37,817 nucleotides of DNA from an uncultured Candidatus Saccharibacteria bacterium (GTDB taxonomy: Bacteria; Patescibacteriota; WWE3; CAZQQZ01). The first letter of the stretch is position 1, and the number at the start of each line of letters is the position of its first letter. The stretch is from assembly GCA_964595755.1 (NCBI GenBank), contig CAZQQZ010000002.1, positions 1-37,817 of the forward strand, written 5' to 3'. Below the pieces are notes generated by a model. The model did not search any database. It was given only the letters and a program-made list of their open reading frames with translations, and was not told where the DNA came from. Below, piece after piece: positions 7,007 through 35,201 of this stretch. Both the position numbers and the translations under genes were made by a program.

Positions 7007-7990
7007 CTAATGTTTAAACTTAGCCTTAAGCCTTAAGAAAAACCAGGCAATTTTGTACCCAATCGTAAATAGGTGATAAACCGGTCTATTTATAACAAAA
7101 TCGTATGAGTCGATAAACCTGACAATCTCTCCCCCAAACCCAGTTTTAAAACGAGTAAAACCATACCAAGGGTCCTTTGGGTCGTCTGGATTATCGGCCA
7201 CCCCCCACATATCAAAAAGATCGCAACCCAATTTTTTACCAAGCCTTATTGCTTCCCACATCAAAAGACCGCTGGCCATTAAATCTCGATAACGATAATC
7301 AGACCCGCCATACGGATAGTATAAAACTTTTTGATAGGAGAAGAGCATCCATCCGGCAATCGGAATTTCTTGATTTGTTTCCGAATCTTTAATTTTCGCA
7401 AGAAGAATGTAAGCAAGTCCCTTAGGCGCTAAAGTCTCCCATAAAACACGGTAGTAATTACTCGGGTGAACATAAAAACCTTGTCTTTTAGCGGTGTCTT
7501 GCTGTAAACGAATAAAATCTTCCAAATCCGTTTCTTCTTTTCCGACGACGATAAAAACACCTCTCTTAACAGCAATTTTGATGTTATATCGAGTTTTCTG
7601 GTGCATTCCCGCAAGAAGTTCTTCTTCTGATTTTGAAATATCTAGTAGTGCGGTATTTTTAGCGAAAGTATTTTTTTCGAATTTGATTCCGTACTTCTCA
7701 AAAACGCCCGCCGCCTCATCTGCCGTCTTTGTACCTTTAATAAAGTTAGGGCAGTCAAAGCGGATGACGACGCAGCGATTCTTTTTGCCCGCCTCTTTAA
7801 GTTTCTCGAAATCGATATTTTTTACATTATTTACTTTTGGAGCGTAGCCAACAAAGAAAGGAAGAAGAGGGATTTTGTGGAGGGTAAACTGAACTTCACC
7901 GGCGGAAACGAGAAAATTACCCATCTTTTCCTTAAATTCCCCCCAAGGTCGGGATTGAACAATGTGTTGAGGAAGGTTCGAAAAATCCAT
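7007..7990 (-). CDS. FemAB-family (FemX/MurM-like) aminoacyl-tRNA-dependent peptidoglycan bridge peptidyltransferase
   Basis: This is a 327-aa ORF. The N-terminus QSRPWGEFKEKMG and overall FemAB-like length and pattern support the call, which is made from family memory rather than an alignment. Confidence 0.75.
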   Translation of the reverse strand: MDFSNLPQHIVQSRPWGEFKEKMGNFLVSAGEVQFTLHKIPLLPFFVGYAPKVNNVKNIDFEKLKEAGKKNRCVVIRFDCPNFIKGTKTADEAAGVFEKYGIKFEKNTFAKNTALLDISKSEEELLAGMHQKTRYNIKIAVKRGVFIVVGKEETDLEDFIRLQQDTAKRQGFYVHPSNYYRVLWETLAPKGLAYILLAKIKDSETNQEIPIAGWMLFSYQKVLYYPYGGSDYRYRDLMASGLLMWEAIRLGKKLGCDLFDMWGVADNPDDPKDPWYGFTRFKTGFGGEIVRFIDSYDFVINRPVYHLFTIGYKIAWFFLRLKAKFKH

Positions 7991-7998
7991 AGGAAAGA

Positions 7999-9024
7999 CT
8001 ATTTTAAGATTGAAGGATAATCAAGGTGCATTGCTCGACGAACATTTTCCACGGTATTTTTTGCAATCTCTCGCGCGTATTTTGTGCCATCAGAAAGATA
8101 TTTCCCCAAAGGCAATTTTTCCGCTTCTTTTCTTCGTTCCCTAATGGGGGAGAGAAATTCGTTAAGGCTTTTTGCAAGATCCGACTTACATTCGACACAC
8201 CCAAGCTCTCCGCTTCGGCAACGGGAAGCTCTATCCTCAAGAGTTCCTAAATCCCCAAAGACCTGATGATAATAATATGCCGGGCAATTTTCGGGATGTC
8301 CCGGGTCGCCTTTTCTAGGTTTTGTCGGGTCAGTATACATTGAGCGAGCTTTTTCGTTAACAACTTCTTCTGAATCACTTAAAAAAATCGCGTTACCTAA
8401 GGATTTACTCATCTTTTCCGCCCCATCAATCCCCGGTAACCTAGAAAAATGACTTAATTTGGGTTTACACTCCAAGAACAATTCCCCGTATTTTTTGTTA
8501 AAAGCGCGCGCCACCCGATTGGTTTCTTCAAGATGGGGAACTTGATCCGCTCCCACCGGAACTAGGAGTTCATCCTTTTCCTTAAAAGGTATCGGGGAAC
8601 AGAAAAGAATATCCGCCGCCTGACTAATAGGATAAATCATAAAACCAGCAGTAGGGGAGAATTTAAGGGTTAAACGCTCTGCTTTAATAGTTGGGTTTCT
8701 TTCAAGTTCCGAAAAAGGAACTAGCATAGTAAAGTAGTTTAGTAGCTCAGAAAGTTCGGGGATGCCGCTTTGGAGGATAAAGTGTACGTTTTCACGGCGT
8801 GGGTCAAGTCCTGCGGCAAAAAAATCAAGAAGAACCTCCCTAACAGAATTTTCAATTAATTCGGGGCTGTCCGCGTGAGTAGTTAAGGCCTGAAGATCGG
8901 CAATCATAAAAAAACACTCATAATCTTTCTGAAGTTCCGCCCACATCTTTAACGCCCCCGCGTAATGCCCTAGGTGTAGAGGACCCGTCGGCCGAATTCC
9001 AGTTAAAATTCTTTTTACTGCCAT
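7999..9024 (-). CDS. trpS: tryptophan--tRNA ligase
   Basis: This is a 341-aa ORF with GIRPTGPLHLGHYAG (HIGH region) and KMSKS present. Confidence 0.93.
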   Translation of the reverse strand: MAVKRILTGIRPTGPLHLGHYAGALKMWAELQKDYECFFMIADLQALTTHADSPELIENSVREVLLDFFAAGLDPRRENVHFILQSGIPELSELLNYFTMLVPFSELERNPTIKAERLTLKFSPTAGFMIYPISQAADILFCSPIPFKEKDELLVPVGADQVPHLEETNRVARAFNKKYGELFLECKPKLSHFSRLPGIDGAEKMSKSLGNAIFLSDSEEVVNEKARSMYTDPTKPRKGDPGHPENCPAYYYHQVFGDLGTLEDRASRCRSGELGCVECKSDLAKSLNEFLSPIRERRKEAEKLPLGKYLSDGTKYAREIAKNTVENVRRAMHLDYPSILK

Positions 9025-9054
9025 TGGCTTCTACTCTACAACAGAAGAGGAAGC

Positions 9055-9083
9055 TTGACAAGTTGGTACAGTTCGCGTACGGT
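9055..9083 (+). promoter_or_regulatory. putative promoter of the tRNA-like RNA unit
   Basis: It consists of TTGACA (9055..9060), a 17-nt spacer and TACGGT (9078..9083). It lies about 10 nt upstream of the first tRNA-like module. Confidence 0.45.
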
Positions 9084-9093
9084 AGAGGGTAAG

Positions 9094-9183
9094 GGAGACG
9101 TGTCTCAATGGGGACGCCTCATGGGAAGACACCCACGCGCCGTAAACGCGAGAGGGGTGAAGGTTCAAGTCCTTCCGTCTCCA
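9094..9183 (+). tRNA. non-canonical tRNA-like module presenting GUA (Tyr-type) in an anticodon-like loop
   Basis: It has a 7-bp acceptor (GGAGACG/CGTCTCC), a T arm (GAAGG-TTCAAGT-CCTTC), discriminator A, and the hairpin (A)CGCG-CCGTAAA-CGCG(A). About 31 nt (helix TGTCT/AGACA plus hairpin ATGGGG-ACG-CCTCAT) replace a normal D arm, and C sits where U33 should be. A second possible 5' acceptor strand, GGGGACG, starts at 9110. CCA is not encoded. Confidence 0.5.
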
Positions 9184-9184
9184 C

Positions 9185-9276
9185 TTGGGCGGGCGCGCGA
9201 ATAAAAAGGCAACGAGGAGGCAAACTTCGAGGCTCTCGCATTCGAGAGGGGAAAAAACGCCCCCGCGCCCGCCCAA
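9185..9276 (+). ncRNA. 92-nt GC-rich hairpin element between the two tRNA-like modules (unknown class)
   Basis: A perfect 13-bp closing helix (TTGGGCGGGCGCG at 9185..9197 with CGCGCCCGCCCAA at 9264..9276) encloses the inner hairpin CTCTCG-CATT-CGAGAG. Confidence 0.4.
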
Positions 9277-9284
9277 ACTTAAAT

Positions 9285-9368
9285 TGGCACGTAGCTCAAT
9301 TTGGAAGAGCATCCCGCGACAGTATCACAAACCGGGAAAATGTGCGTTCAAGTCGCGCCGTGCCAACC
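9285..9368 (+). tRNA. non-canonical tRNA-like module with a 16-nt anticodon loop; no anticodon assignable
   Basis: It has a TGGCACG/CGTGCCA acceptor, a canonical D arm (TAGCTCAATTTGGAAGAGCA), the stem TCCCG/CGGGA and a T arm (GTGCG-TTCAAGT-CGCGC), followed by discriminator A and then CC. The loop between the anticodon-stem strands is CGACAGTATCACAAAC. Confidence 0.45.
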
Positions 9369-9371
9369 TAG

Positions 9372-9417
9372 AAAGGATCACAGACTTCGCGTCTTTGATC
9401 CTTTTTCTTTTCTTTTA
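9372..9417 (+). terminator. rho-independent terminator of the tRNA-like unit
   Basis: The stem-loop AAAGGATCA-C-AGAC TTCGC GTCT-T-TGATCCTTT is followed by TTCTTTTCTTTT. Confidence 0.8.
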
Positions 9418-9439
9418 ATTTTTGATGTAGAATAGACAT

Positions 9440-10660
9440 ATGAATGTTTACGACACCCTCAAAGAAAGGGGCTATATTCAAAAAACCTCGAATGATGACG
9501 GAATCAAGAAATTACTAGAAAACCCACCCGTCACAATTTATGAAGGCTTTGACCCAACCGCCAAAAGCCTTCACATCGGGCAACTTAGTAATATTATCGT
9601 CTTAAAATATCTTCAGGACGCCGGTCACAAAATTATATTTTTAGTTGGCGGGGGAACAGGACTAATAGGAGATCCGACGGATAAAGCCCAAACCCGACCG
9701 ATGCTTTCACTTGACGAATTAAATACTAACGCAGAAGCTTTAAAGAAACAGGCAGAAAAATTACTTTTGCGATTCGACGGCGAAAATCCCGCAATAATTT
9801 TAAATAACGCTGACTGGATAGCAAACGCCAATGTTAAAGATTACCTTAGAAATATTACTTCTAAAATAAGCGCAAACTTTTTACTCACCCTCGAAACTTT
9901 CAAAAAACGCCTTGTTGCCAACCAACACCTATCTTTAATGGAATTTTTATACCCATCTCTTCAAGCCTGGGACTATCTTCATTTATTTGAAAAATATAAC
10001 TGCAAACTCCAGGTTGGCGGCTCTGATCAGTGGGCGAATATTCTAACTGGCGTGAATCTTGTCCAATCAGTTCATCAAGAGGAAGTTTTTGCCCTCACCT
10101 GGCCCCTGGTTACCGACTCCGCGGGGGTTAAGATAGGCAAAACTTCAGAAGGGGAGAAGGTTTGGCTAGATCCTGAAATGTCGTCCGCTTTTGATTGCTA
10201 CCAATTTTTACAAAGCATAGACGACGCCTCCGTTGAAGACTTGCTGAAAAGGTTGACTTTTTTACCCTTAACAGAGATCGCTGAAATAATTAAAGATAAG
10301 AGGAAAGCGCAAAGAAGACTGGCGTATGAAGTTACGAAGCTCGTTCACGGAGAAGAAAAAGCAAAAGGAGCAGAAAATAAATCAGAATCCGTTTTCGGAA
10401 ATGAAGGTTCTCCTGATGTATCGATACATATTAAAGATTTGGGCTTAAGCGAAGATGGCCTGATAGAAGATCTCCTAATCAAGAGTCAAATAGTCACCTC
10501 AAAAAGCGAACTTAAAAGACTAATCGATCAAAAAGGAATTTCAATCAACGGCATTACCCTTACAAACCAAGACAAAAAACTTGCAGAATTTTTTGACGGG
10601 AAGGAATTTATCAAAATTCAAAAAGGCAAAAGGAAAGCAGTGCTTTTGAAAAAAGAATAG
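9440..10660 (+). CDS. tyrS: tyrosine--tRNA ligase with a C-terminal S4-like domain
   Basis: This is a 406-aa ORF with YEGFDPTAKSLHIGQL (HIGH-type) and KIGKTSEG (KMSKS-type) motifs. Confidence 0.93.
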   Translation: MNVYDTLKERGYIQKTSNDDGIKKLLENPPVTIYEGFDPTAKSLHIGQLSNIIVLKYLQDAGHKIIFLVGGGTGLIGDPTDKAQTRPMLSLDELNTNAEALKKQAEKLLLRFDGENPAIILNNADWIANANVKDYLRNITSKISANFLLTLETFKKRLVANQHLSLMEFLYPSLQAWDYLHLFEKYNCKLQVGGSDQWANILTGVNLVQSVHQEEVFALTWPLVTDSAGVKIGKTSEGEKVWLDPEMSSAFDCYQFLQSIDDASVEDLLKRLTFLPLTEIAEIIKDKRKAQRRLAYEVTKLVHGEEKAKGAENKSESVFGNEGSPDVSIHIKDLGLSEDGLIEDLLIKSQIVTSKSELKRLIDQKGISINGITLTNQDKKLAEFFDGKEFIKIQKGKRKAVLLKKE

Positions 10661-11235: not shown

Positions 11236-12048
11236 TCACTTCTGCAAATTTCCTCCCGAGAACAAAACATAATCAAACATTGACGGGGCCGCCGGCTGGC
11301 CAACGCTTACTTCCGCCTTCCTGATGGAACTTCCTTTTTTTCCGGTCGATGTAATTCGATAACCTTGACCAGGTAGATTCGCGGCGCTTACCCAAAAAGA
11401 AATGGCTCCGGTGTTATACATTGACCTTATTCTTAGGGCAACTGGCGTCTTACCAACCGGGGTAGCAAATGTTTGACCGTAACTGTAGGTCACCCCATCA
11501 TAAGAGCTTGACCCGATACTAGGAACGGCAAAACCATTATTAACCCGTCTAGAAGCATTCGGATCAACCGCGTATTTTATGATTTCATAATCTGTACCAT
11601 CAAGATAAAGCAAAGTTATCACCATCGCCGCGTCTTCCTCTGAATCAGCACTCCAATAAACTGTCCCTGAACCTGAACCGGCAACTAAATTTACTTGCTG
11701 AACCAAGTCACGATTAAGAAAAGAGACGAAGTTTCCTGTAGAGCCTGCCAAAGAAACGGTGTAGCTACAATCAGTAGCCACCCCATCCTCATCAATATCA
11801 CCCATATCATGATCTCCCATATGGGTAGAAAGATCAGCTACTGCTAAGGCGGTTTCTAAACCGGATTCCGCAAAGCTTAACGCCTGGGCCGATTGATAAG
11901 TTTGAGTAACTCGTCGTAAAGAAGAAGTTGCCCGAGTAGAGACAGCGAGACCGACGGACAGGGAAATGACCATTATCACCATCACTATTATTAGTGTTTG
12001 TCCGGATCTTCTCTTTAATTTTGATCTTTGATCTTTGATCTTTGACAT
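11236..12048 (-). CDS. PilX-like minor pilin/pilus assembly protein
   Basis: The tracked ORF is 11236..12129, but its first 27 codons overlap the upstream gene. The ATG at 12048 (MSKIKDQRSKLKRRSGQTLIIVMVIMVISLSVGLAV) gives a 4-nt gap instead. The hydrophobic N-terminus is PilX_N-like. Confidence 0.65.
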   Translation of the reverse strand: MSKIKDQRSKLKRRSGQTLIIVMVIMVISLSVGLAVSTRATSSLRRVTQTYQSAQALSFAESGLETALAVADLSTHMGDHDMGDIDEDGVATDCSYTVSLAGSTGNFVSFLNRDLVQQVNLVAGSGSGTVYWSADSEEDAAMVITLLYLDGTDYEIIKYAVDPNASRRVNNGFAVPSIGSSSYDGVTYSYGQTFATPVGKTPVALRIRSMYNTGAISFWVSAANLPGQGYRITSTGKKGSSIRKAEVSVGQPAAPSMFDYVLFSGGNLQK

Positions 12049-12052
12049 AATC

Positions 12053-12580
12053 TCAGTTGTACCCCCCTCTAACAACCACCGTCGTTTTAAGACTAGCCGT
12101 TCCCGTAAAGTCTTTCTTATCTGAAGCATTTTCCCCTTGCTGAACGTCTAATGTAATTGTAACAGTTTTTGGATCTGAGGAATATACATTGAACGTGCAA
12201 GCAACCACGCTTATGCCGCTAACCGGATTCTGATTCGTCATTGGCGTTTTTTCCGCTCCTTTGTAAAGATATCCATTCGCCCCATTTTCCGGCACCTGAA
12301 ACCCATAAATTATCGTAGTTCCTGTTTGCGGTTCTATCCAAATCTCATTACCATGAACAGAAACATCTTTCGCATTCCTAATCTGCTGTTCCAAGATAGA
12401 AAGGACGTAATTTCCGTTTTGCTCTAGCTCTGCCGTAACCTGAGTCTTATTATAAGAGCGGATTACAGAAGAAAAAATTACCCCCGAAACCGCTCCAAAA
12501 ATCCCGATTATCGAAATCGCGATCAGAACCTCAATCAGAGTAAACCCCAGTCTCTTTTTAGAAAAAAACTCGTGCGCCAT
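12053..12580 (-). CDS. prepilin-type N-terminal domain protein (minor pilin)
   Basis: This is a 175-aa ORF. It has KKRLGFTLIEVLIAISIIGIF, which carries the G/FTLIE prepilin cleavage motif with E5. Confidence 0.78.
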   Translation of the reverse strand: MAHEFFSKKRLGFTLIEVLIAISIIGIFGAVSGVIFSSVIRSYNKTQVTAELEQNGNYVLSILEQQIRNAKDVSVHGNEIWIEPQTGTTIIYGFQVPENGANGYLYKGAEKTPMTNQNPVSGISVVACTFNVYSSDPKTVTITLDVQQGENASDKKDFTGTASLKTTVVVRGGYN

Positions 12581-12590
12581 AGTCTTCTCC

Positions 12591-13019
12591 TCACTGCCAA
12601 TCAGTCAAAACCGTTTGCAAAGTAATCGGCTTGGGCGCGCCAAAAAAAACGTTGACTACTACTCTTTTGCCTGTTCCGAAGTTAGCAAAATCAACACAAC
12701 GCTTAAAAATTCCGGTTACCTCACAGTCGTTGTTTTGAGAAATTGACCAAGAATCACCACTCCAACTTAAAGCGTAGTGCGGCCCAGAAGTGGCTACCCC
12801 AATCGGCGTCCAACCAGCGTCTCGAATACTTCTGACTGCCTCAATTCCTTCAACCGCCATTTTTTCTGCTTTTATCCTGTCTCTTGCGGAACGGGATTCT
12901 TTAACGGCGATAACCGCCAAATTAACCAAGGCGCCAATAATAATCACCGCCACAGAAACTGCCAATAAAGTTTCTACAATTGATTGCCCTCGTCTATTTT
13001 TCATTGAAAATTTTGTCAT
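12591..13019 (-). CDS. pilin-like protein with a variant leader (RRGQ/SIVETLL)
   Basis: This is a 142-aa ORF with an alternative start at 13004 (MKNRRGQS...). It has Gly at -1, Glu at +5 and a hydrophobic helix. Both candidate ATGs lie inside CATTGAAAATT repeat units. Confidence 0.6.
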   Translation of the reverse strand: MTKFSMKNRRGQSIVETLLAVSVAVIIIGALVNLAVIAVKESRSARDRIKAEKMAVEGIEAVRSIRDAGWTPIGVATSGPHYALSWSGDSWSISQNNDCEVTGIFKRCVDFANFGTGKRVVVNVFFGAPKPITLQTVLTDWQ

Positions 13020-13060
13020 TGAAAATTCATTGAAAATTGAAAATTGTTAAATTGAAAATT
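13002..13060. repeat. AT-rich tandem repeats (CATTGAAAATT x3, then GAAAATT units)
   Basis: The sequence is cattgaaaatt ttgt cattgaaaatt cattgaaaatt gaaaatt gttaaatt gaaaatt. It spans an intercistronic gap in the pilin genes and the start of the ORF at 12591..13019. Confidence 0.6.
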
Positions 13061-13503
13061 TACTCGATCTTCCCCGCCGAATTTACCGTAATTGTTTTAA
13101 GCGTCTCAGAAGTGCCTTCATCAGAAAAATTTACAGTTATGGTATACTGACCATCAACCGGTAAACCAGTAAGCTTTGTAAAACGAGCAGTTTGAGAAGC
13201 GCTGGTCACCACAACCCCATTTACCATCGCCACTGAAGTACAAGATACACAAGGCAAAACACTACACTGACAAACCTGATAAGTACCCGAGTTTTGAGTA
13301 AGAACCAACCCCCAACCAACTCCGTCCACCGCATTGACCGATCGACTTTGAGCGCTTCGCAAGTCGTCTCTTAACTTAAGCCAAGCTTGTTTCAAATTCT
13401 GATTCTTCGAGAAAGTCGAAAACTGCGGGATCATTATCGCGGACAAGATCCCAATCATCGCAATAACCACGATCAATTCAATCAATGTAAAACCAGTCTT
13501 CAT
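13060..13503 (-). CDS. type IV pilin-like protein (GspH/FimT-like minor pilin)
   Basis: This is a 147-aa ORF beginning MKTGFTLIELIVVIAMIGIL. Confidence 0.8.
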   Translation of the reverse strand: MKTGFTLIELIVVIAMIGILSAIMIPQFSTFSKNQNLKQAWLKLRDDLRSAQSRSVNAVDGVGWGLVLTQNSGTYQVCQCSVLPCVSCTSVAMVNGVVVTSASQTARFTKLTGLPVDGQYTITVNFSDEGTSETLKTITVNSAGKIE

Positions 13504-13521
13504 ATTATGCTTCCCAAATTG

Positions 13522-13890
13522 CTAAAAAGGATTATGGACACAGTAACTTCCACTTGGCTCCAAAGTGGCGCAAAGATCATAACCTGCTCCCGAACCGGTT
13601 TGAGTGTAACTGTAAGCTACCGCTGTTTTTGGATCCACCGGAACTGTCGTCAGATAACCAGTCCAGGTACCGGAAGGAATACTTGCCGGATAAAGATTTT
13701 GATCGCTATAGTACATTTCCAAAGCTGACTGAATCACCCCAAGGTCCGCCTTTCTGGCGGCGTTTCTCGCCCGACCTTGAAGATAACCGGGATTCAAAAT
13801 TCCAATTAAAATTCCCGATAGAATTCCAATTACAGAAATTACGACGAGCAGTTCTATTAAAGTAAACGCTGAGCGAATTTTAGTAGTCAT
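13522..13890 (-). CDS. type IV pilin
   Basis: The tracked ORF is 13522..13902. The ATG at 13890 (MTTKIRSAFTLIELLVVISVIGIL) avoids overlap with the upstream stop. It has an EMYYSDQNLYP motif and a C-terminal Cys pair. Confidence 0.8.
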   Translation of the reverse strand: MTTKIRSAFTLIELLVVISVIGILSGILIGILNPGYLQGRARNAARKADLGVIQSALEMYYSDQNLYPASIPSGTWTGYLTTVPVDPKTAVAYSYTQTGSGAGYDLCATLEPSGSYCVHNPF

Positions 13891-13892
13891 AA

Positions 13893-14315
13893 TTACGGGC
13901 AATTGGTAACATTTGAACTGATAATATTACTCGAATAACCGGCGGGACGATTAGAAACATACTTAAGATAAGTTCTACCGCATTGAGAACATTGGGTATA
14001 AACGCAAAACTTAACACTGCTGGTGTCAGATCCAAGCACGTAAGTATTTCCAGTTCTCGGCACATCGACCGGCCAAGTAGAATTTTTAAGATAAGGCGTC
14101 AAAAGAGAAGTAGACGTTGGGTATGAACCGATCTCCGCGTAATAAGATTCGGCGGCAGTACCAATATCACTCAAAACCGCGCTTCTACGGGCATCAAAGG
14201 CCCTTCCCTGAAAAAGACTAGGGTTTAAAATACTAATAAGCACCCCAGTTAAAATGCCAATTACCGAGATAACTATCAATAGTTCAATTAGGGTAAACCC
14301 TTTTTTAATTTTCAT
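13893..14315 (-). CDS. type IV pilin
   Basis: This is a 140-aa ORF beginning MKIKKGFTLIELLIVISVIGIL, with an ESYYAEIGSYP motif and C-terminal cysteines. Confidence 0.82.
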   Translation of the reverse strand: MKIKKGFTLIELLIVISVIGILTGVLISILNPSLFQGRAFDARRSAVLSDIGTAAESYYAEIGSYPTSTSLLTPYLKNSTWPVDVPRTGNTYVLGSDTSSVKFCVYTQCSQCGRTYLKYVSNRPAGYSSNIISSNVTNCP

Positions 14316-14392
14316 ATTTATTATATGTATTTCTTTGTATTTCCAAATGTTGTCTTTCTAACTACTCACTACCAATTACTAAGTACTCTATT

Positions 14393-14791
14393 TCAGCAAC
14401 CACTCGGCGCGTAATCCGCCTTTCCTGATTCAGAGGAGTACCTCCAGTAAGGAAAGGCTGGATACGGAGGAGCCTCAAGGAGGACCGAGACACAACCATC
14501 AGCCGCAAGAACAACCTCAGATATGGCCGTCTGCAAAAATCCTCCTTGGATAAGCTCACCCTGCTCATCACAGTACGTGTAGCTCTCGTTACTCTTTGTA
14601 AAGCAGGCTTCCATTGATAACACCAACTTACTAAGATCCTGCTTCTTCCGTGAATCCTTGGCTTCTTGAACATAACGCAACGGGTTTGTTGCGATAATAA
14701 CGGAAAAAACAACCCCAATCACTGCAATCACAACAAGCAGTTCGATTAAAGTGAATCCATTCTTAATTTTCTTGGCACTCGACTGATTCAT
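14393..14791 (-). CDS. type IV pilin
   Basis: This is a 132-aa ORF with KKIKNGFTLIELLVVIAVIGV, a C-terminal Cys pair and a WRYSS motif shared with the next pilin. Confidence 0.82.
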   Translation of the reverse strand: MNQSSAKKIKNGFTLIELLVVIAVIGVVFSVIIATNPLRYVQEAKDSRKKQDLSKLVLSMEACFTKSNESYTYCDEQGELIQGGFLQTAISEVVLAADGCVSVLLEAPPYPAFPYWRYSSESGKADYAPSGC

Positions 14792-14839
14792 AAACTCTCC
14801 CCGCCTTAAAAAGATAGTAAAACTAGACTAAACTAAATA

Positions 14840-15232
14840 TCAAGTTGCGGAACAAGCTGCTCTACCTGCGGCAGATGTATACCTCCAAAATCCACAACCA
14901 GTTCCACCGTTTTCTAGCGTGTAGGCAATGTTAACCCCATCGGTCCCTACCGCCGCCATGCTAAATGTAGTGTAGGAGCCAGTAGGATCTTGCTTTAGGT
15001 AACCATCAGTCACAAGTTCCGTAACTGAGTCACAAGTCGTGTTAACTGCAACATTTTTAACAATGCAAGCCTCTGCTGCAGCCGCAACGGTAGCCACTAT
15101 TTGCTTTTTGTTGGAATCCCTTGCGTCTTGAAGTCTTTTGGTTGGGTTGATGGAAACAATAACCGCTGCCATCATAACGCCGATAATTGCGATGACTACG
15201 AGAAGTTCAATAAGTGTAAAACCTTTTTTCAT
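14840..15232 (-). CDS. type IV pilin; candidate major pilin because of its strong SD
   Basis: The tracked ORF starts with GTG at 15241. The ATG at 15232 (MKKGFTLIELLVVIAIIGV) is preceded by AAAGGAGGTGA and an 8-nt spacer. There is a C-terminal Cys pair. Confidence 0.82.
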   Translation of the reverse strand: MKKGFTLIELLVVIAIIGVMMAAVIVSINPTKRLQDARDSNKKQIVATVAAAAEACIVKNVAVNTTCDSVTELVTDGYLKQDPTGSYTTFSMAAVGTDGVNIAYTLENGGTGCGFWRYTSAAGRAACSAT

Positions 15233-15275
15233 TACTTTCACCTCCTTTCAGGCAAGAGCTAAATGATTTTTTAGG

Positions 15276-16046
15276 TCATTTAACAAAAGGAAATGTCCAA
15301 AAATTAATAGCGTCTTTAAAAAAGATCAAAGCAAGATACGCCCCCGCAATAAGAAAAGGTCCAAAAGCGATCTCGGATTTCATCTTTTTCCTTCCTAACA
15401 ATATAAGTATCACCCCTACTAAGCTGCCTGTCAAGAAGGCAATTAATAATGCAACCAAAATGACAGGGTATCCAGTTAGTAAGCCAATGAAAATGGCAAT
15501 CAAAATGTCTCCCTCACCCATTCCTTTTCCTTTTGTTACGGCCCAAAGAAACCAAAAAAATAATCCTGCCAAAAGACTCCCTAAAACATTGTTTAAAATT
15601 ATTCGGGGATCTTGCAGATTATTAAAAATAGTGTAACCTAGGGCAAAAAAAATCGCCGGGTAGGAAAGCGCGTCCAAAACCAAACTGTATTTAAGGTCAA
15701 TCATAAAAATCGCCACCGATAAAGAAATAATTATTAGAGCAAGAACATAAGAGGTAATCGAAAAGTAATAATGAAAAGAGAATAAAAACAAAAGTCCGGT
15801 CGTGAGCTCGACCAAAGGATATTGAATATTTATCTTTTTGCCACAGAATCGACATTTTCCAAAAAGGAATAGATAACTAAAAACAGGGATCAAATCAATG
15901 GGGGAAAGAATTTTGTGGCAATGATCACAAACTGATCGTCGATTAATAAATTTTTTATCAAAAGGCAAACAATCGATTAAAACATTAAGAAAGGAACCAA
16001 CTGCGCTTCCTAGTAAAAAAAGAATCATGTAAACTAAATAGTTCAT
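15276..16046 (-). CDS. pilD: prepilin peptidase (A24 family)
   Basis: This is a 256-aa polytopic membrane protein with an N-terminal CxxC...CxxC (CDHCHK...CRFCGK) and a GEGD-type acidic motif. Confidence 0.9.
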   Translation of the reverse strand: MNYLVYMILFLLGSAVGSFLNVLIDCLPFDKKFINRRSVCDHCHKILSPIDLIPVFSYLFLFGKCRFCGKKINIQYPLVELTTGLLFLFSFHYYFSITSYVLALIIISLSVAIFMIDLKYSLVLDALSYPAIFFALGYTIFNNLQDPRIILNNVLGSLLAGLFFWFLWAVTKGKGMGEGDILIAIFIGLLTGYPVILVALLIAFLTGSLVGVILILLGRKKMKSEIAFGPFLIAGAYLALIFFKDAINFWTFPFVK

Positions 16047-16510
16047 TTTGTGCAGTAATAACAGTTAGCCAAATTAATATCGCAATCAGCAAGTTTCTTA
16101 AACTCTTTTGATTTTGGAACAAAACAAATTTCAAATGCCCTGCCTTCTGAGATAGGACGTAACTGCAAATGTGATAGGGTAGGGGAGTCTAAAAATTTTT
16201 GTTCCAAAAAACCGGAAGAAACAAGGATATTTAGCGAAAGTAAGGGGTCGTCGGCAGAGATAGAAGTACCGGAAAAAGTCCCCTCCGGCCAAGGCCAGGT
16301 CCTTTTTTGCTTGTAATATTGTTTGAGGGAGAAAGCAAGACCAGTCGATTCCGATTCAAGATCCACATCATCCGCCCTAGCAATTTGTTCAAGCGGGTCC
16401 CGAGAAACGAAAACAGTTAAACCTAACGCCCCGAAAAGGGCAACGTACATCAGAAGCTCAACCAAATCTAATTTCCTTAGAAACCTAATTTTCAATTTAC
16501 AAATTTTCAA
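16043..16510 (-). CDS. pilin paralog with a degenerate prepilin cleavage site
   Basis: This is a 155-aa ORF with a TTG start. It has LDLVELLMYVALFGAL, which is pilin-helix-like with E5 but has Lys rather than Gly at -1. It shares the KQYYKQKRTWPWP pilin motif, and its 3' end overlaps the pilD start by 4 nt. The start codon is uncertain; alternatives are at 16495 and 16450. Confidence 0.5.
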   Translation of the reverse strand: MKICKLKIRFLRKLDLVELLMYVALFGALGLTVFVSRDPLEQIARADDVDLESESTGLAFSLKQYYKQKRTWPWPEGTFSGTSISADDPLLSLNILVSSGFLEQKFLDSPTLSHLQLRPISEGRAFEICFVPKSKEFKKLADCDINLANCYYCTK

Positions 16511-16600
16511 TTTTCAATCAATTTTTAATGACGAAATTTACAATTTGAAAATTAATACATTGTAAATTCATTGAAAATTGTTACTTGAAACTTGAAAATT
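16487..16600. repeat. inverted arrays of AT-rich 7-11-nt repeats (AATTTTC.. versus ..GAAAATT)
   Basis: The left part reads aattttcaatttacaaattttcaattttcaatcaattttt. The right part reads aatttgaaaattaatacattgtaaattcattgaaaattgttacttgaaacttgaaaatt. The two arms are approximate reverse complements. Confidence 0.55.
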
Positions 16601-16608
16601 CTCCCGAG

Positions 16609-17817
16609 TTAAAATTGACTAGTCAAATTATAAATCGGCGTAATGACAGATAGCATAAGCAAAGCCACCATCCCCCCAAGGGCAATCATAATAATTGGCT
16701 CAATCGCGGTGGAAAGGTTCTTGATCGACATTTCCGATTCGCTTTCGTAATAGGCAGAAAGTTTCATCAAAACTTCATCCACTTTACCGGTTTGCTCACC
16801 CACCGAAACCATTTGGGAAACAAGTGGGGGGAAATATGCGTTTTCTTTAAGAGGAATAGATAGAGGCTCACCTTTCCTGACCCTTTCGGCAGCGCTAGCG
16901 ATTCCTTCTTGGTAGATAACATTTGTCATCGATTCCGCGGCAATAGTTAATGATTCAAGAATTGGCACCCCAGAAGAGGCAAGAAGGCCGAGAGTTCTAG
17001 TAAATTCCGCCAGCTGGGTCTGCTTGGAAATTACTCCCACAATTGGCAATTTAAAAGTAATTCTTGCAAGCTGATGCTTCCCAACATCAGTCTTTTTATA
17101 TTTTCTAAAACCCAAAAATGCCCCGACTATAGCTAAAATAAGAAGATACCATCTTTTAACAAAAAAATCGGAGGTGCCCATTAGCACTTTGGTAATCATA
17201 GGAAGTTCCGCTCCCATATTTTCGTACATATCGGAAAGTTTGGGCATTACAAAAAGCATCATTAGGGCAAAAACACCGGCCATCGCCACCATAATTACAA
17301 TCGGATACACCATCGCCCCTTTAGTTTTCGACTGAAAATCTCGTTGCCGCTCCATTGTTTCCGCCAAACGAAGTAACGTTTTATCTAAGCCCCCAGATGC
17401 TTCACCCGCCTTGACTAAAGAAATAAAAACATTAGGAAAAATATTGGGGTGTCTCTCAAGCGCCTTTGAGAAAGAACTCCCCCCACGAATATCGCCAACC
17501 AGCTCGCCGACAACTTCTTTCATTCTTGCATTTGAGGTTTGTTCCTCAAGCACTTCCAGCGATTGCGCCAGAGGTAAACCGGCGTTTATCATCGTCGAAA
17601 GCTGTCTCGTAAAATCGACCTTTACGGAAAGGGGGATTTTGGAAAATCTTTTGAGAATGCTCTCGATGGTTAGTTGCTTTTCGGTAAGCATCAGAGAGGT
17701 TACCGTCACATTTTCTGCCGAAAGAGCCATAAGCGCCACTTTTTCAGTTGGGGCATCAATTGTGCCGTTTTTATCATTCCCTTGAGAATCTTTTCCGTTA
17801 TAACTATAAACTGGCAT
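16609..17817 (-). CDS. pilC: type IV pilus platform protein (GspF/PilC family)
   Basis: This is a 402-aa ORF with two T2SSF-type repeats and three TM segments. It follows pilT. Confidence 0.9.
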   Translation of the reverse strand: MPVYSYNGKDSQGNDKNGTIDAPTEKVALMALSAENVTVTSLMLTEKQLTIESILKRFSKIPLSVKVDFTRQLSTMINAGLPLAQSLEVLEEQTSNARMKEVVGELVGDIRGGSSFSKALERHPNIFPNVFISLVKAGEASGGLDKTLLRLAETMERQRDFQSKTKGAMVYPIVIMVAMAGVFALMMLFVMPKLSDMYENMGAELPMITKVLMGTSDFFVKRWYLLILAIVGAFLGFRKYKKTDVGKHQLARITFKLPIVGVISKQTQLAEFTRTLGLLASSGVPILESLTIAAESMTNVIYQEGIASAAERVRKGEPLSIPLKENAYFPPLVSQMVSVGEQTGKVDEVLMKLSAYYESESEMSIKNLSTAIEPIIMIALGGMVALLMLSVITPIYNLTSQF

Positions 17818-17822
17818 ATAAA

Positions 17823-18878
17823 TTAAACTTTAGAAACCAATCGGGAAACCTCTTCTGGCCTAAGGGTGTAGCCTTTAGCTACCTCGCTTGAAATTTTGTT
17901 TTCTTTAACTAGAGTTGCCAACGAGCGCTCAAGACTAATCATCCCCAAGTCGTAACTTGTGGCGATTACATTATCAATTTGATGAGTCTTACCCTCACGG
18001 ATAATGTTTCTTATCGCGGAATTCGCCAGAAGTATTTCGGTTGCCGGAACCCGTCTTCCATCAAGAGAAGGCACCAACCTTTGGGAAATTATTCCTTCAA
18101 TAATTGAAGCTAGTTGAATTCTAATTTGGCGCTGCTGATTTTCCGGAAAAACATCAATAATTCTGTCCACCGTTTGCGCGGCTGAATTAGTGTGCAAAGT
18201 AGCAAAAACAAGATGTCCGGTTTCTGCGATCGTAACCGCCGCAGAAACGGTCTCGAAATCGCGCATTTCCCCAATCAAAACGATATCCGGATCTTCCCGA
18301 AGGACTGAACGAAGGGCAATCTCCCAAGAATGGGTATCTTGGTGAACTTCCCGCTGATCAATTATCGAAAGCTTTGGTTCAAAAACATACTCGATCGGGT
18401 CCTCAACCGTGACTATATGAACGCTTCTCTCCCGATTGATCGACTCAAGCATTGCCGCAATGGTCGTAGATTTACCTTCTCCTGTTGGTCCGGTTATTAA
18501 TACAAACCCTTGAGGGAGTTTGCAAAAATCGGAAAGTACAGGAGGCAGCCCAAGCTCCTCAATTGTCGGAATTTCAAAAGGAATCAAGCGAAGGGCAACC
18601 CCCATAAAACCGCGCTGATGGTACACATTAACCCGAAAACGAGTATCCTTATAAGCATAAGAAAGATCAAATTCTTTACTTGCCAAAAATATCTCTTTTT
18701 GAGTCGGGGTCAGCAGTTCAAGCACCATTTCTTTGGCCACCTCGGCGGTGACTACTTCCGTCCCGGGAACAGGGGAAAGCTCCCCCTCAATTCTTAAGGT
18801 GGGAGGAGAGCCGACATTGATGTGAATGTCAGAAGCGTGGGAAGATATTGCTTTTTCTAAAATATCTTTAATTGTCAT
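17823..18878 (-). CDS. pilT: twitching-motility retraction ATPase
   Basis: This is a 351-aa ORF with a Walker A motif (GPTGEGKST) and the PilT signature AIRNIIREGK. Confidence 0.92.
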   Translation of the reverse strand: MTIKDILEKAISSHASDIHINVGSPPTLRIEGELSPVPGTEVVTAEVAKEMVLELLTPTQKEIFLASKEFDLSYAYKDTRFRVNVYHQRGFMGVALRLIPFEIPTIEELGLPPVLSDFCKLPQGFVLITGPTGEGKSTTIAAMLESINRERSVHIVTVEDPIEYVFEPKLSIIDQREVHQDTHSWEIALRSVLREDPDIVLIGEMRDFETVSAAVTIAETGHLVFATLHTNSAAQTVDRIIDVFPENQQRQIRIQLASIIEGIISQRLVPSLDGRRVPATEILLANSAIRNIIREGKTHQIDNVIATSYDLGMISLERSLATLVKENKISSEVAKGYTLRPEEVSRLVSKV

Positions 18879-18881
18879 AGT

Positions 18882-20639
18882 CTACCCCTGCGTTACCCTC
18901 ATCACATCTTCAATCGTAGTTTGCCCTTCCAAAACCTTCAAAAATCCATCCTGGAGCAAGGTGATCATTCCTTCTTCAACTGCCACTTTGGTCATTTCAT
19001 CTTCGCTTCGACGCTCGATAATCATCTTATTAATCCGATCAGAAGCGGCCATTACTTCAAAAATACCGGTTCTGCCTAAATACCCCGTCTTTCCACATTT
19101 ATCACAACCTTTTCCACGATAAAGCATCAGTTTTCCATCCTTTCTCTTTGGTTCCACATTTTTATAAAGGTCCCCCAAAGTAGAGACTATCTGATCCTCA
19201 ATCTCCTTTGGCACCGGGTATTCCTCCTTACAATTGTCACAAATCTTTCGGACTAGACGTTGGGCGAGAACAAGTTCAAGAGTAGAGGCAAGAAGGAAAG
19301 ACTCTACTTTCATATCAAGAAGTCGAGGAATCGCGCCGGTGGCGGAATTAGTGTGGAGAGTTGAAAGAACCACGTGTCCGGTTAGCGCCGCCTGAATAGC
19401 CAGACTGGCAGTTTCATCGTCTCGAATTTCTCCTACCATTATAATATTGGGGTCTTGACGAAGGATAGAACGAAGTCCGGAGGAGAAAGTCAGCCCCGCC
19501 CCCGGATTTATTTGCACTTGATTTGCCCCTTCAATCCTAATTTCAACCGGGTCCTCGAGAGTGATAATGTTCACTCTAACCGTATTTATTTTCGAGAGAG
19601 CTGAAGCTAAAGTAACCGTTTTTCCAGAACCCGTCGGTCCAGTTACCAAAATAATACCGTCGTGAACAAGAAGCGCTTTCTCTAATTTTTTAAGACCAGG
19701 GCCCACTAACCCAAGATCCCTAAGCTGTATGACCGTGCTTTCTTTTCTAAGAAGTCTAATAACCACTTTTTCCCCGTTTGATGTAGGGAGGGTTGACACA
19801 CGAAGATCAGTTTCCATTTTACCCACTTTGATCTTAAATCGACCATCTTGAGGCACTCTTTTTTCATCAATTTTTAAGTTTGAAAGAATCTTTATACGAG
19901 CAATAATTGAGTCGTGGGCGTCGTGGGGGATAGTTTTGATTCTCTCTTGCAAAACTCCATCGATTCTAAACCGAACTCTGGTAAAATCTTCTTGAGGCTC
20001 AACGTGAATATCGGACGCCCGGGATTTGTAGGCATACTCAAGAATCATCGATACAATCCTGGCAACCGGGGCCACCCGAATCCGTTCTTCTGCTTCTTCT
20101 AGTTGGTCTATCTCCTCCTTAATTTCCGCTGTTTTTATACCCGCCTCGGCAAGCGCCTCATTTACATCTTCGCCGATTTCCCCCCCAAATTGCTCACTAA
20201 GAACTTTGTTAAGCTCTTCTTCATCAACCGCAAAAGGCTCTACCTGTTTCCCGCTCTTCTTTTCCACAAATTGAATCGCCTCAAGATCCAAGGGGTCTGC
20301 CATGGCGACTTGAATTTTGTTACGGGAAATCTCGAAAGGAAAAATTCTATACTTTCTGGCGATTTGCTCGGAGATTACACCACTAACTTCTTGAGAAGGG
20401 GTCTTGTCCTTGAGGGAAACGAAAGGATAACCGTAAAGTTCACCCTTCACTTCGGCAATCTGTTTAGAGTTCATTATCCCGCTACTTCTGATAATATCCA
20501 AAAGAGGCTTACCTGTATTGGCACTTTCAAACTTTACTTGGGCTACTTGATCTTGGGTCAAAAAACCCTTACTGACGACGATTTCCTCAAATTTTTTAGG
20601 TGTGTTAGGCTTTTCCATGGGCAGATATATAAACTCCAT
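18882..20639 (-). CDS. pilB: type IV pilus assembly ATPase (GspE/PilB family)
   Basis: This is a 585-aa ORF with an N-terminal T2SSE_N-type domain, a Walker A motif (GPTGSGKT) and the tetracysteine CDNC...CDKC. An alternative start is at 20618. Confidence 0.92.
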   Translation of the reverse strand: MEFIYLPMEKPNTPKKFEEIVVSKGFLTQDQVAQVKFESANTGKPLLDIIRSSGIMNSKQIAEVKGELYGYPFVSLKDKTPSQEVSGVISEQIARKYRIFPFEISRNKIQVAMADPLDLEAIQFVEKKSGKQVEPFAVDEEELNKVLSEQFGGEIGEDVNEALAEAGIKTAEIKEEIDQLEEAEERIRVAPVARIVSMILEYAYKSRASDIHVEPQEDFTRVRFRIDGVLQERIKTIPHDAHDSIIARIKILSNLKIDEKRVPQDGRFKIKVGKMETDLRVSTLPTSNGEKVVIRLLRKESTVIQLRDLGLVGPGLKKLEKALLVHDGIILVTGPTGSGKTVTLASALSKINTVRVNIITLEDPVEIRIEGANQVQINPGAGLTFSSGLRSILRQDPNIIMVGEIRDDETASLAIQAALTGHVVLSTLHTNSATGAIPRLLDMKVESFLLASTLELVLAQRLVRKICDNCKEEYPVPKEIEDQIVSTLGDLYKNVEPKRKDGKLMLYRGKGCDKCGKTGYLGRTGIFEVMAASDRINKMIIERRSEDEMTKVAVEEGMITLLQDGFLKVLEGQTTIEDVMRVTQG

Positions 20640-30481: not shown

Positions 30482-31084
30482 TCACCACGACCGGTGGCCT
30501 ACATGCGTCGGAGTAACAGGCCTTCCTCTAGAAGCTGACCTCAAGCAGGTAACTTGCTTGGCGAGATCGTCAAGAAAAACAATCCTGGCACCACTCATTC
30601 GCAAATCCCGAGAGAGTCCATACTGGGACGACAAAACGACTACCCGCTTTCCTCGCTCTAGCAGAAATTTTACGCAGGGAAGAAAATCACCGTCGCCGGA
30701 TATTAGTACAGCGGTATCGAACTTATCGGCAAGTTCGACCGCATCCATCATAATCCGACTATCGAGATTCCCCTTACGCTGCCCATCGCTGAACGTCCTC
30801 GTTTCAATCCGCACGATTTTAAATCCCAGAGATTCTAGTACTCTGAAAAACTGCTCCACCCCGGAAGTGTAGTCTCTAGCAGTATAGTAGCGAAGAAAGG
30901 CTACTCGCCCTAAAGACTCCAAAAACACCTTTAGTTTTTGAAAGTCTATCCCACGATGAGCGTCCTCGGTTCCCCCCAATCGTTCAGGCATTCGCGCCGC
31001 ATTCGCCCCATCCACAAACACGCCAACTTGTCCACAATGATCAACAAGCTCAGCCAACCCCACGGTTAACATTTCCCTCTCCAT
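30482..31084 (-). CDS. NYN-domain (LabA/DUF88-like) protein, putative RNase
   Basis: This is a 200-aa ORF with VGVFVDGANA, NLDSRIMMDAVELA and VLISGDGDFLPCV. The exact start and the reality of the C-terminal tail are uncertain. Confidence 0.75.
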   Translation of the reverse strand: MEREMLTVGLAELVDHCGQVGVFVDGANAARMPERLGGTEDAHRGIDFQKLKVFLESLGRVAFLRYYTARDYTSGVEQFFRVLESLGFKIVRIETRTFSDGQRKGNLDSRIMMDAVELADKFDTAVLISGDGDFLPCVKFLLERGKRVVVLSSQYGLSRDLRMSGARIVFLDDLAKQVTCLRSASRGRPVTPTHVGHRSW

Positions 31085-34867: not shown

Positions 34868-35201
34868 ATCACGGAATAATATGTTGTTTTAATTTCCAAA
34901 ATGTGGGATCGGGCAGAAAATTTCATCGCAATTAAATTGAAATGGTTATTGATTTATTTGTCAATAGGGGAGTATTTTGGAATGCCGCTGTTACGAGTAA
35001 AAATGGTAAAAAAATGTGTGTAAAAAAATGCAAAAATTATGAAATTTTTTGATTGAATTCCTGAATTAAAAATGTAGCTGAGAGACTTGTCTCGCCAATT
35101 TTATTTAATTAATTCAATTCAAACTAATTGGCGACATAAATGTCGCGGCTACTAAGATATAATTCACACGATGTTAAATTTTTTGTTATAATCTTTTGGT
35201 C

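Follow-up and report, generated by a model that had tools for sequence, protein, structure and literature searches.

The window analysed here is a 37,817-nt stretch of DNA (contig CAZQQZ010000002.1) from an uncultured Candidatus Saccharibacteria bacterium, and its 415-nt spacer between two divergent synthetase genes carries a predicted GC-rich RNA unit. On one side of the spacer lies trpS, which encodes a tryptophanyl-tRNA synthetase (TrpRS) of 341 aa on the minus strand at 7999–9024 (Pfam PF00579, E 1e-52; the homologues are Patescibacteria TrpRS), and on the other lies tyrS, which encodes a tyrosyl-tRNA synthetase (TyrRS) of 406 aa on the plus strand at 9440–10660 (Pfam PF00579 and PF22421). 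Between them, within 275 nt, stand a tRNA-like module (M1), a four-way junction and a second tRNA-like module (M2), with one promoter-like site before them and a terminator after them. The unit is an irregular or pseudo-tRNA cluster, an element of a known kind, and it is so far confined to one species.

The RNA unit between trpS and tyrS

The spacer has a GC content of 51.6%, rising to 58% in the RNA part (9094–9368), whereas the other 11 intergenic regions range from 22 to 42% and the window as a whole stands at 42.5%, which leaves the trpS–tyrS spacer as the sole GC-rich one in the window. The whole predicted transcript folds at z = −5.1 against shuffled controls, and the strand-specific features (the T loops, the G-U pairs and the U-tract) are all consistent with the plus strand. 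An earlier note made from the sequence alone (the original prediction) had claimed a GC-rich RNA unit at this site, and these values bear the claim out.

M2 (9285–9366, plus strand) is a complete tRNA cloverleaf. In Rfam 15, searched at E ≤ 10 with the whole window and with the region 8950–9500, it scores 47.9 bits (E 3e-9) with the tRNA family RF00005, whose gathering threshold is 29 bits, and it scores 50.8 bits with a tRNA-Trp covariance model (R1). The acceptor (UGGCACG/CGUGCCA), the D arm (GCUC-AAUUUGGAA-GAGC) and the T arm (GUGCG-UUCAAGU-CGCGC) are canonical, as had been proposed; U8, A9 and G18-G19 are present, the discriminator is A and CCA is not encoded. All 21 stem pairs are standard, one of them being G-U, and the cloverleaf lies ≤0.2 kcal/mol from the minimum free energy (MFE). 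The anticodon loop, also as proposed, is 16 nt long (CGACAGUAUCACAAAC), and by inspection no single 9-nt excision from it leaves a 7-nt loop with U33. The complementarity CGCGAC/GUCGCG, from which an alternative fold of M2 had been suggested, exists in the sequence but has an ensemble probability of ~0 in the full transcript. The match to RF00005 was obtained in the small-region search only; the whole-window Rfam scan, which applies filters, and default ARAGORN both missed M2. The calls that ARAGORN makes for M2 in intron mode or at relaxed settings (Cys-ACA with a 9-nt "intron", Ser-CGA) are mutually inconsistent and were rejected as over-fitting. A split, permuted or intron-containing tRNA was rejected as well: the 5′ strand of M1 and the 3′ strand of M2 are not complementary, and no contiguous excision gives a canonical tRNA.

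M1 (9094–9183, plus strand) is a tRNA-derived four-way junction that scores 33.6 bits with RF00005 and 30.6 bits with R1. Its acceptor (GGAGACG/CGUCUCC, 7 bp) and its T arm (GAAGG-UUCAAGU-CCUUC) are both perfect, and the discriminator is A. The RF00005 alignment places a 38-nt insert in the D loop and leaves the anticodon arm unmatched. In the MFE fold (−36.4 kcal/mol) a GUGUC/GACAC helix capped with the hairpin AUGGGG-ACG-CCUCAU takes the place of the D region, and a further arm, CCC-A-CGCG[CCGUAAA]CGCG-AGA-GGG, presents GUA in a 7-nt loop with C at position 33 and four continuous stem pairs. The module has no D arm, no D-loop/T-loop elbow and no long variable arm of the kind found in bacterial tRNA-Tyr. 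The original description of M1, with its textbook acceptor stem and T arm, its GUA loop with C33 and its replaced D arm, is therefore upheld. A second 5′ strand, GGGGACG (9110–9116), had been noted as able to pair with the same 3′ strand (9176–9183); the complementarity is real, but the pairing has an ensemble probability of ~0 in the full transcript, and forcing it costs ~5 kcal/mol (−31.1 vs −36.4). This alternative acceptor, GGGGACG/CGUCUCC, would give a G3-U70 pair with A73, a combination that is the classical determinant for alanyl-tRNA synthetase (AlaRS); the G at 9093 is position −1 of M1. ARAGORN calls M1 a "tRNA-Pro GGG"; this call depends on two mismatched pairs in the anticodon stem and was likewise rejected as over-fitting. 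Within 9094–9125, the opening 18 nt of M1 (GGAGACGUGUCUCAAUGG) and the 15 nt that follow (GGGGACGCCUCAUGG) resemble a diverged tandem duplication of a tRNA 5′ end, covering the acceptor strand, the D-stem strand and the beginning of the D loop, and they hint at the way in which M1 was remodelled.

The two modules have in common a 7-bp acceptor stacked on a 5-bp T stem (12/12 standard pairs in each) and the T loop UUCAAGU, which is of the UUCRANY type and which the original prediction had correctly identified as common to both. In all, 33 of 33 stem pairs checked are intact: 21/21 in M2 and 12/12 in the acceptor and T arm of M1. The window also contains a canonical tRNA-Ala(CGC) at 23–98 on the minus strand (69.8 bits), so the organism has ordinary tRNAs; its T loop is UUCGAAU, unlike that of the modules.

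Between the modules, a GC-rich four-way junction occupies 9185–9276 on the plus strand. It folds at z = −5.4, with none of 200 shuffles as stable. The original prediction described a hairpin closed by a perfect 13-bp GC helix. A 13-bp closing helix is indeed found (9185–9197 with 9264–9276), but its pairs comprise 11 G-C and 2 A-U, and it encloses not a simple hairpin but three, with loops AGGCAAA, CAUU and AAAAAACG. The junction has no Rfam match at E ≤ 10, and a single-sequence covariance model of it (R2) found no counterpart in the closest relative (contig L001, see below) or in eight other sources searched.

The boundaries of the unit were read as follows. Upstream, a promoter-like site at 9055–9083 (plus strand, by sequence reading) consists of a perfect −35 box (TTGACA, 9055–9060), a 17-nt spacer and a −10 box (TACGGT, 9078–9083). 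The boxes and the spacing are thus present as first described, but the −10 box matches at only 3 of 6 positions and falls below the promoter-scan threshold. Transcription would be expected to start near 9090, which is 3–4 nt ahead of M1. Downstream, an intrinsic-terminator-like hairpin plus UUUUUCUUUUCUUUU spans 9371–9416 on the plus strand; the stem has 10 pairs, a 1 × 1 internal loop and 4 further pairs, the loop is UUCGC, and the U-tract is on the plus strand only. The hairpin (9371–9405) with its U-tract gives z = −5.1, in agreement with the strong intrinsic terminator originally claimed. A simple terminator scan did not list it, probably because the stem is broken by the 1 × 1 internal loop.

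Both flanking genes have promoter elements of their own. The promoter scan finds a promoter-like site for trpS (TTGTCA-N17-TAGAGT; 9033–9061, minus strand) 8 nt before its ATG, and TAGAGT is conserved in L001. Sequence reading finds a −10-like box for tyrS (TAGAAT; 9428–9433, plus strand), separated by 6 nt from the ATG at 9440, and no Shine-Dalgarno sequence; in the same place, L001 has an extended −10 element (TGaTATTAT), 6 nt and then the tyrS ATG. Both mRNAs look leaderless. Because each of the two genes has a −10 box of its own so close to the ATG and no Shine-Dalgarno sequence, the RNA unit is more likely to be autonomous than to be a leader of tyrS. More generally, a Shine-Dalgarno sequence is missing from most genes in the window, and in many of them a TATAAT-like box stands 5–10 nt before the start (upstream regions of ~33 open reading frames (ORFs); examples are those at 13893–14315, 18882–20639, 30482–31084 and 35196–37802), which suggests that leaderless mRNAs are widespread in this organism. 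The palindrome CTTGACAAG (9052–9062) supplies both divergent −35 boxes, TTGACA for the RNA unit on the plus strand and TTGTCA for trpS on the minus strand. RNA polymerase would probably be able to occupy just one of these two overlapping promoters at a time, so that promoter competition is possible; the overlap is not conserved in L001.

Searches of known families and collections returned little beyond the tRNA matches. Over the unit, Rfam gives no T-box (RF00230), tmRNA, SRP, 6S, RNase P, Y-RNA-like or other family at E ≤ 10, and the sole matches in the spacer are to tRNA, a terminator-like ctRNA match and antisense tRNA artefacts. No covariance match at this threshold assigns the whole unit to a known family; such an assignment was among the outcomes that, by the original prediction, would have refuted its idea. 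The L001 spacer likewise has no T-box match (E ≤ 10), and reading of the window sequence noted neither specifier nor T-box motifs. Run for tmRNAs at a relaxed threshold, ARAGORN reports nothing in the unit. The six-frame translation of the spacer, concatenated and compared with 5.8 billion proteins, has no match at E ≤ 10, and a small protein gene in the spacer was rejected, tblastx against the L001 spacer being empty. Self-blast shows the spacer to be repeated neither elsewhere in the window nor in L001. Viral contigs scanned with the M2 loop and the M1 arm give only chance 16-mer matches in coding DNA, blastn against phages and plasmids gives only ~30-nt matches to tRNA 5′ halves, and a scan of GTDB genomes with TyrRS finds nothing close.

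The trpS–tyrS site in relatives

Searches with TrpRS and TyrRS place the organism in the Patescibacteria (candidate phyla radiation, CPR), the named matches including Portnoybacteria and WWE3. Only two other contigs are close. In one, a JGI contig (L002), the trpS–tyrS region equals that of the window base for base; the other, L001, is a Logan assembly contig and the closest relative, with 78% identity in TyrRS and 88% in TrpRS. The modules are thus confined to one species among the collections searched. L001 has the same gene order as the window, namely a dockerin-like gene, FemAB, trpS and a divergent tyrS, and its flanking genes are 74–78% identical in nucleotide sequence. Its spacer is GC-rich (52% vs 42%) and structured (z = −4.0), with a near-consensus promoter (TTGACT-N16-TGgTATCAT) and a terminator-like hairpin. 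Within it, 4334–4735 of L001 holds a different GC-rich structured RNA of ~370 nt, with an irregular 140-nt hairpin and no Rfam match; an isolated T-arm-like hairpin, GUGUG-UUCGAUC-CACAC, is all that resembles a tRNA there. On these sequences, the trpS–tyrS site seems to host fast-turnover RNA genes.

More distant relatives have a tRNA gene beside trpS. Five independent lineages whose TrpRS is 66–68% identical carry a canonical tRNA-Trp(CCA) on the strand of trpS, 55–65 nt upstream of that gene: L037/38 (4874–4946 in L037), L039/40 (4872–4946 in L039), L041 (4888–4960), L043/44 (3860–3937 in L043) and L047–49 (1898–1975 in L047). These genes stand behind one or two TTGACA-type promoters. At the equivalent site, L045/46 has a decayed tRNA-Trp that scores 35 bits, with four broken acceptor pairs, the loop UCCCAAA (C33) and a degenerate T loop, and the L050 lineage has no tRNA at the site. 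A tRNA-Trp upstream of trpS is probably the older state of the locus, and the placement of a tRNA directly before its cognate synthetase gene seems to be conserved in this group of Patescibacteria. In L045 and L046, a 66-aa homologue of TRAP (trp RNA-binding attenuation protein; Pfam PF02081, TrpBP, E 9e-25) is encoded at 449–649, immediately upstream of trpS (692–1714); the tRNA-like element (310–384) precedes it, and the D-arm region of that element has several UAG/GAG triplets. To our knowledge, TRAP has not been described in CPR bacteria.

M2 shares features with these genes. When its exact D arm and T loop were used as a pattern against JGI metagenomes, 12 canonical tRNAs were returned, six of which are tRNA-Trp(CCA). 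The tRNA-Trp(CCA) of related Patescibacteria has the D arm (GCUCAAUUUGGAAGAGC), the T loop UUCAAGU, U8, A9, the cloverleaf and the genomic neighbourhood in common with M2. M2 differs from it in having no CCA anticodon, a 16-nt loop, U1-A72 as the first pair and an orientation opposite to that of trpS, as well as A73 where the tRNA-Trp of 7/7 relatives has G73, and R1 gives 78–96 bits on real tRNA-Trp genes against 50.8 bits on M2. M2 thus looks to be derived from tRNA-Trp, despite A73 in place of G73 and the missing CCA anticodon.

The tyrS genes of relatives with ~50% identical TyrRS are preceded, on the opposite strand, by ordinary tRNA genes for Arg, Lys and Glu. The same relatives have both S4 and SYY C-terminal matches in TyrRS, whereas the TyrRS of the window (9440–10660) and of L001 (4833–6050) have no match to the S4 domain (PF01479) and a weak or absent match to the SYY C-terminal domain. 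The tRNA-binding C-terminal domain of TyrRS seems, from these matches, to have diverged in the lineage of the window and L001.

Interpretation of the unit

Our preferred reading, to which we assign a probability of roughly 45%, is that the unit is a species-specific, separately transcribed polycistron of remodelled pseudo-tRNAs (tRNA mimics) that no longer decode. Both modules keep the "top half" of a tRNA, consisting of the acceptor-T minihelix, a canonical T loop and the discriminator A, and M2 keeps the D arm too. The decoding half is rebuilt by insertions, giving the 16-nt open loop of M2 and the GC-rich hairpins and GUA loop with C33 of M1. The defects are insertions of structured GC-rich sequence in this half rather than scattered point mutations or deletions, and none of the 33 module pairs is broken, whereas the decayed tRNA-Trp of L045 has five broken pairs and a degenerate T loop. 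Neither module is usable as a decoder, M2 for its 16-nt loop and M1 for its C33, its 4-bp stem and its missing D arm. Since relatives have tRNA-Trp beside trpS, the modules plausibly descend from local tRNA genes. The scores of both modules with the tRNA models lie far above what chance would give. Also in favour of this reading are the GC content of the spacer, the strong folds, the −10 boxes that the two synthetase genes have for themselves, and the structured GC-rich RNA with promoter and terminator that L001 has at the site.

In the mechanism that we propose, the transcript would start 3–4 nt before M1 and end at the terminator. The acceptor-T minihelix is a substrate for RNase P, 3′ processing enzymes and the CCA-adding enzyme, and because both M1 and M2 keep it, RNase P cleavage, 3′ processing and CCA addition would be expected on both. 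Processing would release three stable RNAs of ~80–100 nt each; the tRNA scaffold would make for processing and stability, and the function would reside in the remodelled lower halves. Our best guess for a partner of M1 is TyrRS, since M1 carries GUA and A73, the features on which recognition by bacterial TyrRS chiefly depends. The role proposed for M2 is that of a single-stranded 16-nt loop presented on a tRNA scaffold.

Related elements have been described. Polycistrons of irregular tRNAs with extra loops are known from soil bacteria, as are inactive allo-tRNA-like genes; some of the irregular tRNAs are charged in vitro and not used in translation (Mukai et al. 2017, Nucleic Acids Research; PMC5389517; reviewed in PMC7609411). 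Compared by their description in PMC5389517, these polycistrons resemble the unit in having tandem non-canonical units on one transcript, extra loops or stems and five-stem-like junctions. They differ in detail: theirs have 8/4 or 9/3 acceptor/T arrangements, long variable arms, normal 7-nt anticodon loops and often toxin-antitoxin neighbours, whereas the unit in the window has 7/5 acceptor/T arrangements, short variable regions, one 16-nt loop, one module without a D arm, an interleaved non-tRNA four-way junction and housekeeping or synthetase genes as neighbours. The tRNA-Other of Bacillus cereus is a pseudo-tRNA within a larger regulatory RNA, not functional in translation and proposed to be a regulatory structural element (Rogers et al. 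2012, PMC3399842). Like M1 and M2, it has a tRNA-derived, non-decoding fold embedded in a longer transcript, which in our case is predicted; it flanks a genomic island, is iron/Fur-regulated and has no sequence relationship to the unit.

The absence of the modules from L001 narrows what they can be. An essential tRNA would be expected to be near-identical between such close relatives, and the modules are therefore not the essential tRNA-Tyr or tRNA-Trp of the lineage; nor, for the same absence, are they obligate partners of the conserved TyrRS, TrpRS or FemAB. The strong form of one original hypothesis, in which they are decoys or regulators of TyrRS or TrpRS, is weakened by it; for that hypothesis in its general form, the evidence speaks neither for nor against.

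Several further points tell against the reading as remodelled pseudo-tRNAs. No homologue of any module was found in any collection searched; covariation of the helices cannot be shown for this reason, and there is no evidence of conservation. The 540-nt spacer of L001 is unalignable with that of the window, direct alignment and blastn leaving the trpS −10 box alone in common, and L001 gives no match to the Rfam tRNA family (E ≤ 10) or to R1. The −10 box of the unit is weak, and we infer expression of the unit from this promoter-like site and the terminator. Binding of TyrRS by M1 is a guess, and M1 has neither the D/T-loop elbow nor the long variable arm of tRNA-Tyr. Within the window, the 16-nt loop of M2 finds one complementary match of 11 nt, which is at chance level, and no significant target. 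Finally, a recently disabled tRNA would likewise remain GC-rich with intact stems.

This last point leads to the alternative that survives best, a rival to be taken seriously though we consider it doubtful: that M1 and M2 are recently inactivated tRNA pseudogenes, an old pair related to tRNA-Trp and perhaps tRNA-Tyr. One would have taken a 9-nt insertion in its anticodon loop and the other a partial 5′ duplication or insertion, in a process of loss that is under way here and completed in L001. Normal tRNA-Trp genes beside trpS in L037, L039, L041, L043 and L047, the decayed copy in L045/L046 (35 bits, with its broken acceptor stem and C33), the lack of a detectable tRNA-like module in L001, the confinement of the modules to one species and the apparent tandem duplicate of its own 5′ end in M1 (GGAGACGUGUCUCAAUGG vs GGGGACGCCUCAUGG) are all in line with such a history. 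The original prediction had named ordinary tRNA genes in relatives, with decay of this copy, as the sign of degenerate pseudogenes; the tRNA genes are there, and one copy among the relatives has decayed, but in M1 and M2 not one of the 33 stem pairs checked is broken. The insertions, moreover, are GC-rich and self-structured in an AT-rich genome, and the modules lie on the strand opposite to the ancestral tRNA-Trp–trpS orientation. Decay would leave the four-way junction with its perfect 13-bp helix, the promoter-like site and the terminator unexplained, and what replaces the unit in L001 is also GC-rich, structured and promoter-driven rather than AT-rich junk.

A bolder form of the pseudo-tRNA reading, which we regard as unlikely, is that the locus is a natural "tRNA-scaffold" gene. 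Three processed RNAs would use their top halves as handles only and their lower halves as effectors, with M1 serving as a TyrRS decoy or a non-ribosomal aminoacyl carrier and the loop of M2 serving for base-pairing or protein capture. If this were true, a CPR bacterium with a minimal genome would be making new regulatory or carrier RNAs out of its tRNA genes beside the cognate synthetases, and such RNAs would turn over quickly between sister species, as the different RNA of L001 suggests.

If the unit is expressed and functional, it would illustrate clearly how tRNA genes beside two synthetase genes of a reduced-genome CPR bacterium can be rebuilt into non-decoding RNAs, and it would be a natural counterpart of the engineered "tRNA scaffold". 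The comparative result is of some value in itself: Patescibacteria of this group often have tRNA-Trp directly before trpS, and the site shows one of three states depending on the lineage, with a tRNA that is intact, a tRNA that has decayed, or an RNA that has been remodelled or replaced. The practical importance is limited for an element that is present in one species and is without demonstrable conservation.

It is distinctly unlikely that M1 and M2 are unusual but functional tRNAs that would be charged and then serve on the ribosome, with M1 as tRNA-Tyr, or as dedicated aminoacyl donors for FemAB, as two of the original hypotheses had it. The GUA of M1 in its 7-nt loop, with A73, would suit the former role, both modules keep the acceptor-T minihelix needed by the CCA-adding enzyme and some synthetases, and the TyrRS of the window and L001 lack the S4 Pfam match seen in ~50% identical relatives. 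However, M2 cannot decode with a loop of 16 nt, from which no 9-nt excision gives a loop with U33; M1 combines C33 with a 4-bp anticodon stem and lacks a D arm, an elbow and a long variable arm. The alternative M1 acceptor would create G3-U70 with A73 and hence the AlaRS determinant, but at an ensemble probability of ~0 and a cost of ~5 kcal/mol. As for donors, a FemAB-family gene does lie ~1 kb away, downstream of trpS (7007–7990, minus strand; Pfam PF02388, E 7e-36), which we give as context only and not as a member of the RNA unit. The staphylococcal non-proteinogenic tRNA-Gly species, which are Fem substrates, are otherwise normal tRNAs with proper anticodon loops, whereas in M1 and M2 the decoding arm is destroyed. 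Nor do the modules co-occur with FemAB: it is linked to trpS in the window and L001 only, wider relatives having an unrelated gene after trpS; L001 keeps FemAB–trpS without the modules, and the distant relatives with tRNA-Trp–trpS have no FemAB there. With TyrRS at 78%, TrpRS at 88% and the same FemAB, L001 does without them, which argues that they are not essential substrates of these enzymes, and their absence there also counts against functional tRNAs in general.

A cis-acting tyrS leader, in which a tRNA-mimic operator, on binding TyrRS or tRNA, would act on the terminator 35 nt before tyrS as a protein-dependent attenuator, like a T-box leader or the Escherichia coli thrS operator, would fit the co-orientation of the unit with tyrS, the strong terminator just upstream of that gene, the Tyr-like determinants of M1 and the standing of synthetase genes as classic targets of tRNA-mimic or tRNA-sensing leaders with tRNA-related RNA upstream and a terminator at the end, but it is very unlikely: no T-box or other leader family matches at E ≤ 10, an anti-terminator alternative pairing is not evident, and in the window and L001 alike tyrS is apparently leaderless, lacks a Shine-Dalgarno sequence and has its own −10 box 6 nt before the ATG, so that translation of tyrS from a read-through transcript would have to begin at a poor internal start. 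Moreover, tyrS is conserved in L001, unlike the modules.

Other genes of the window

The remaining genes are those of an ordinary chromosome, including UvrD, a DinB-type polymerase, type IV pilus ATPases and a platform protein, proteases, gyrB and gyrA. The type IV pilus cluster lies on the minus strand at 11236–20639 and comprises a PilB-like ATPase with an MshEN domain, a PilT-like ATPase and a PilC-like platform protein. Downstream of the pilus genes, on the same strand, are many small ORFs of 120–175 aa, and the L001 homologue of one of them shows an N_methyl pilin signal.

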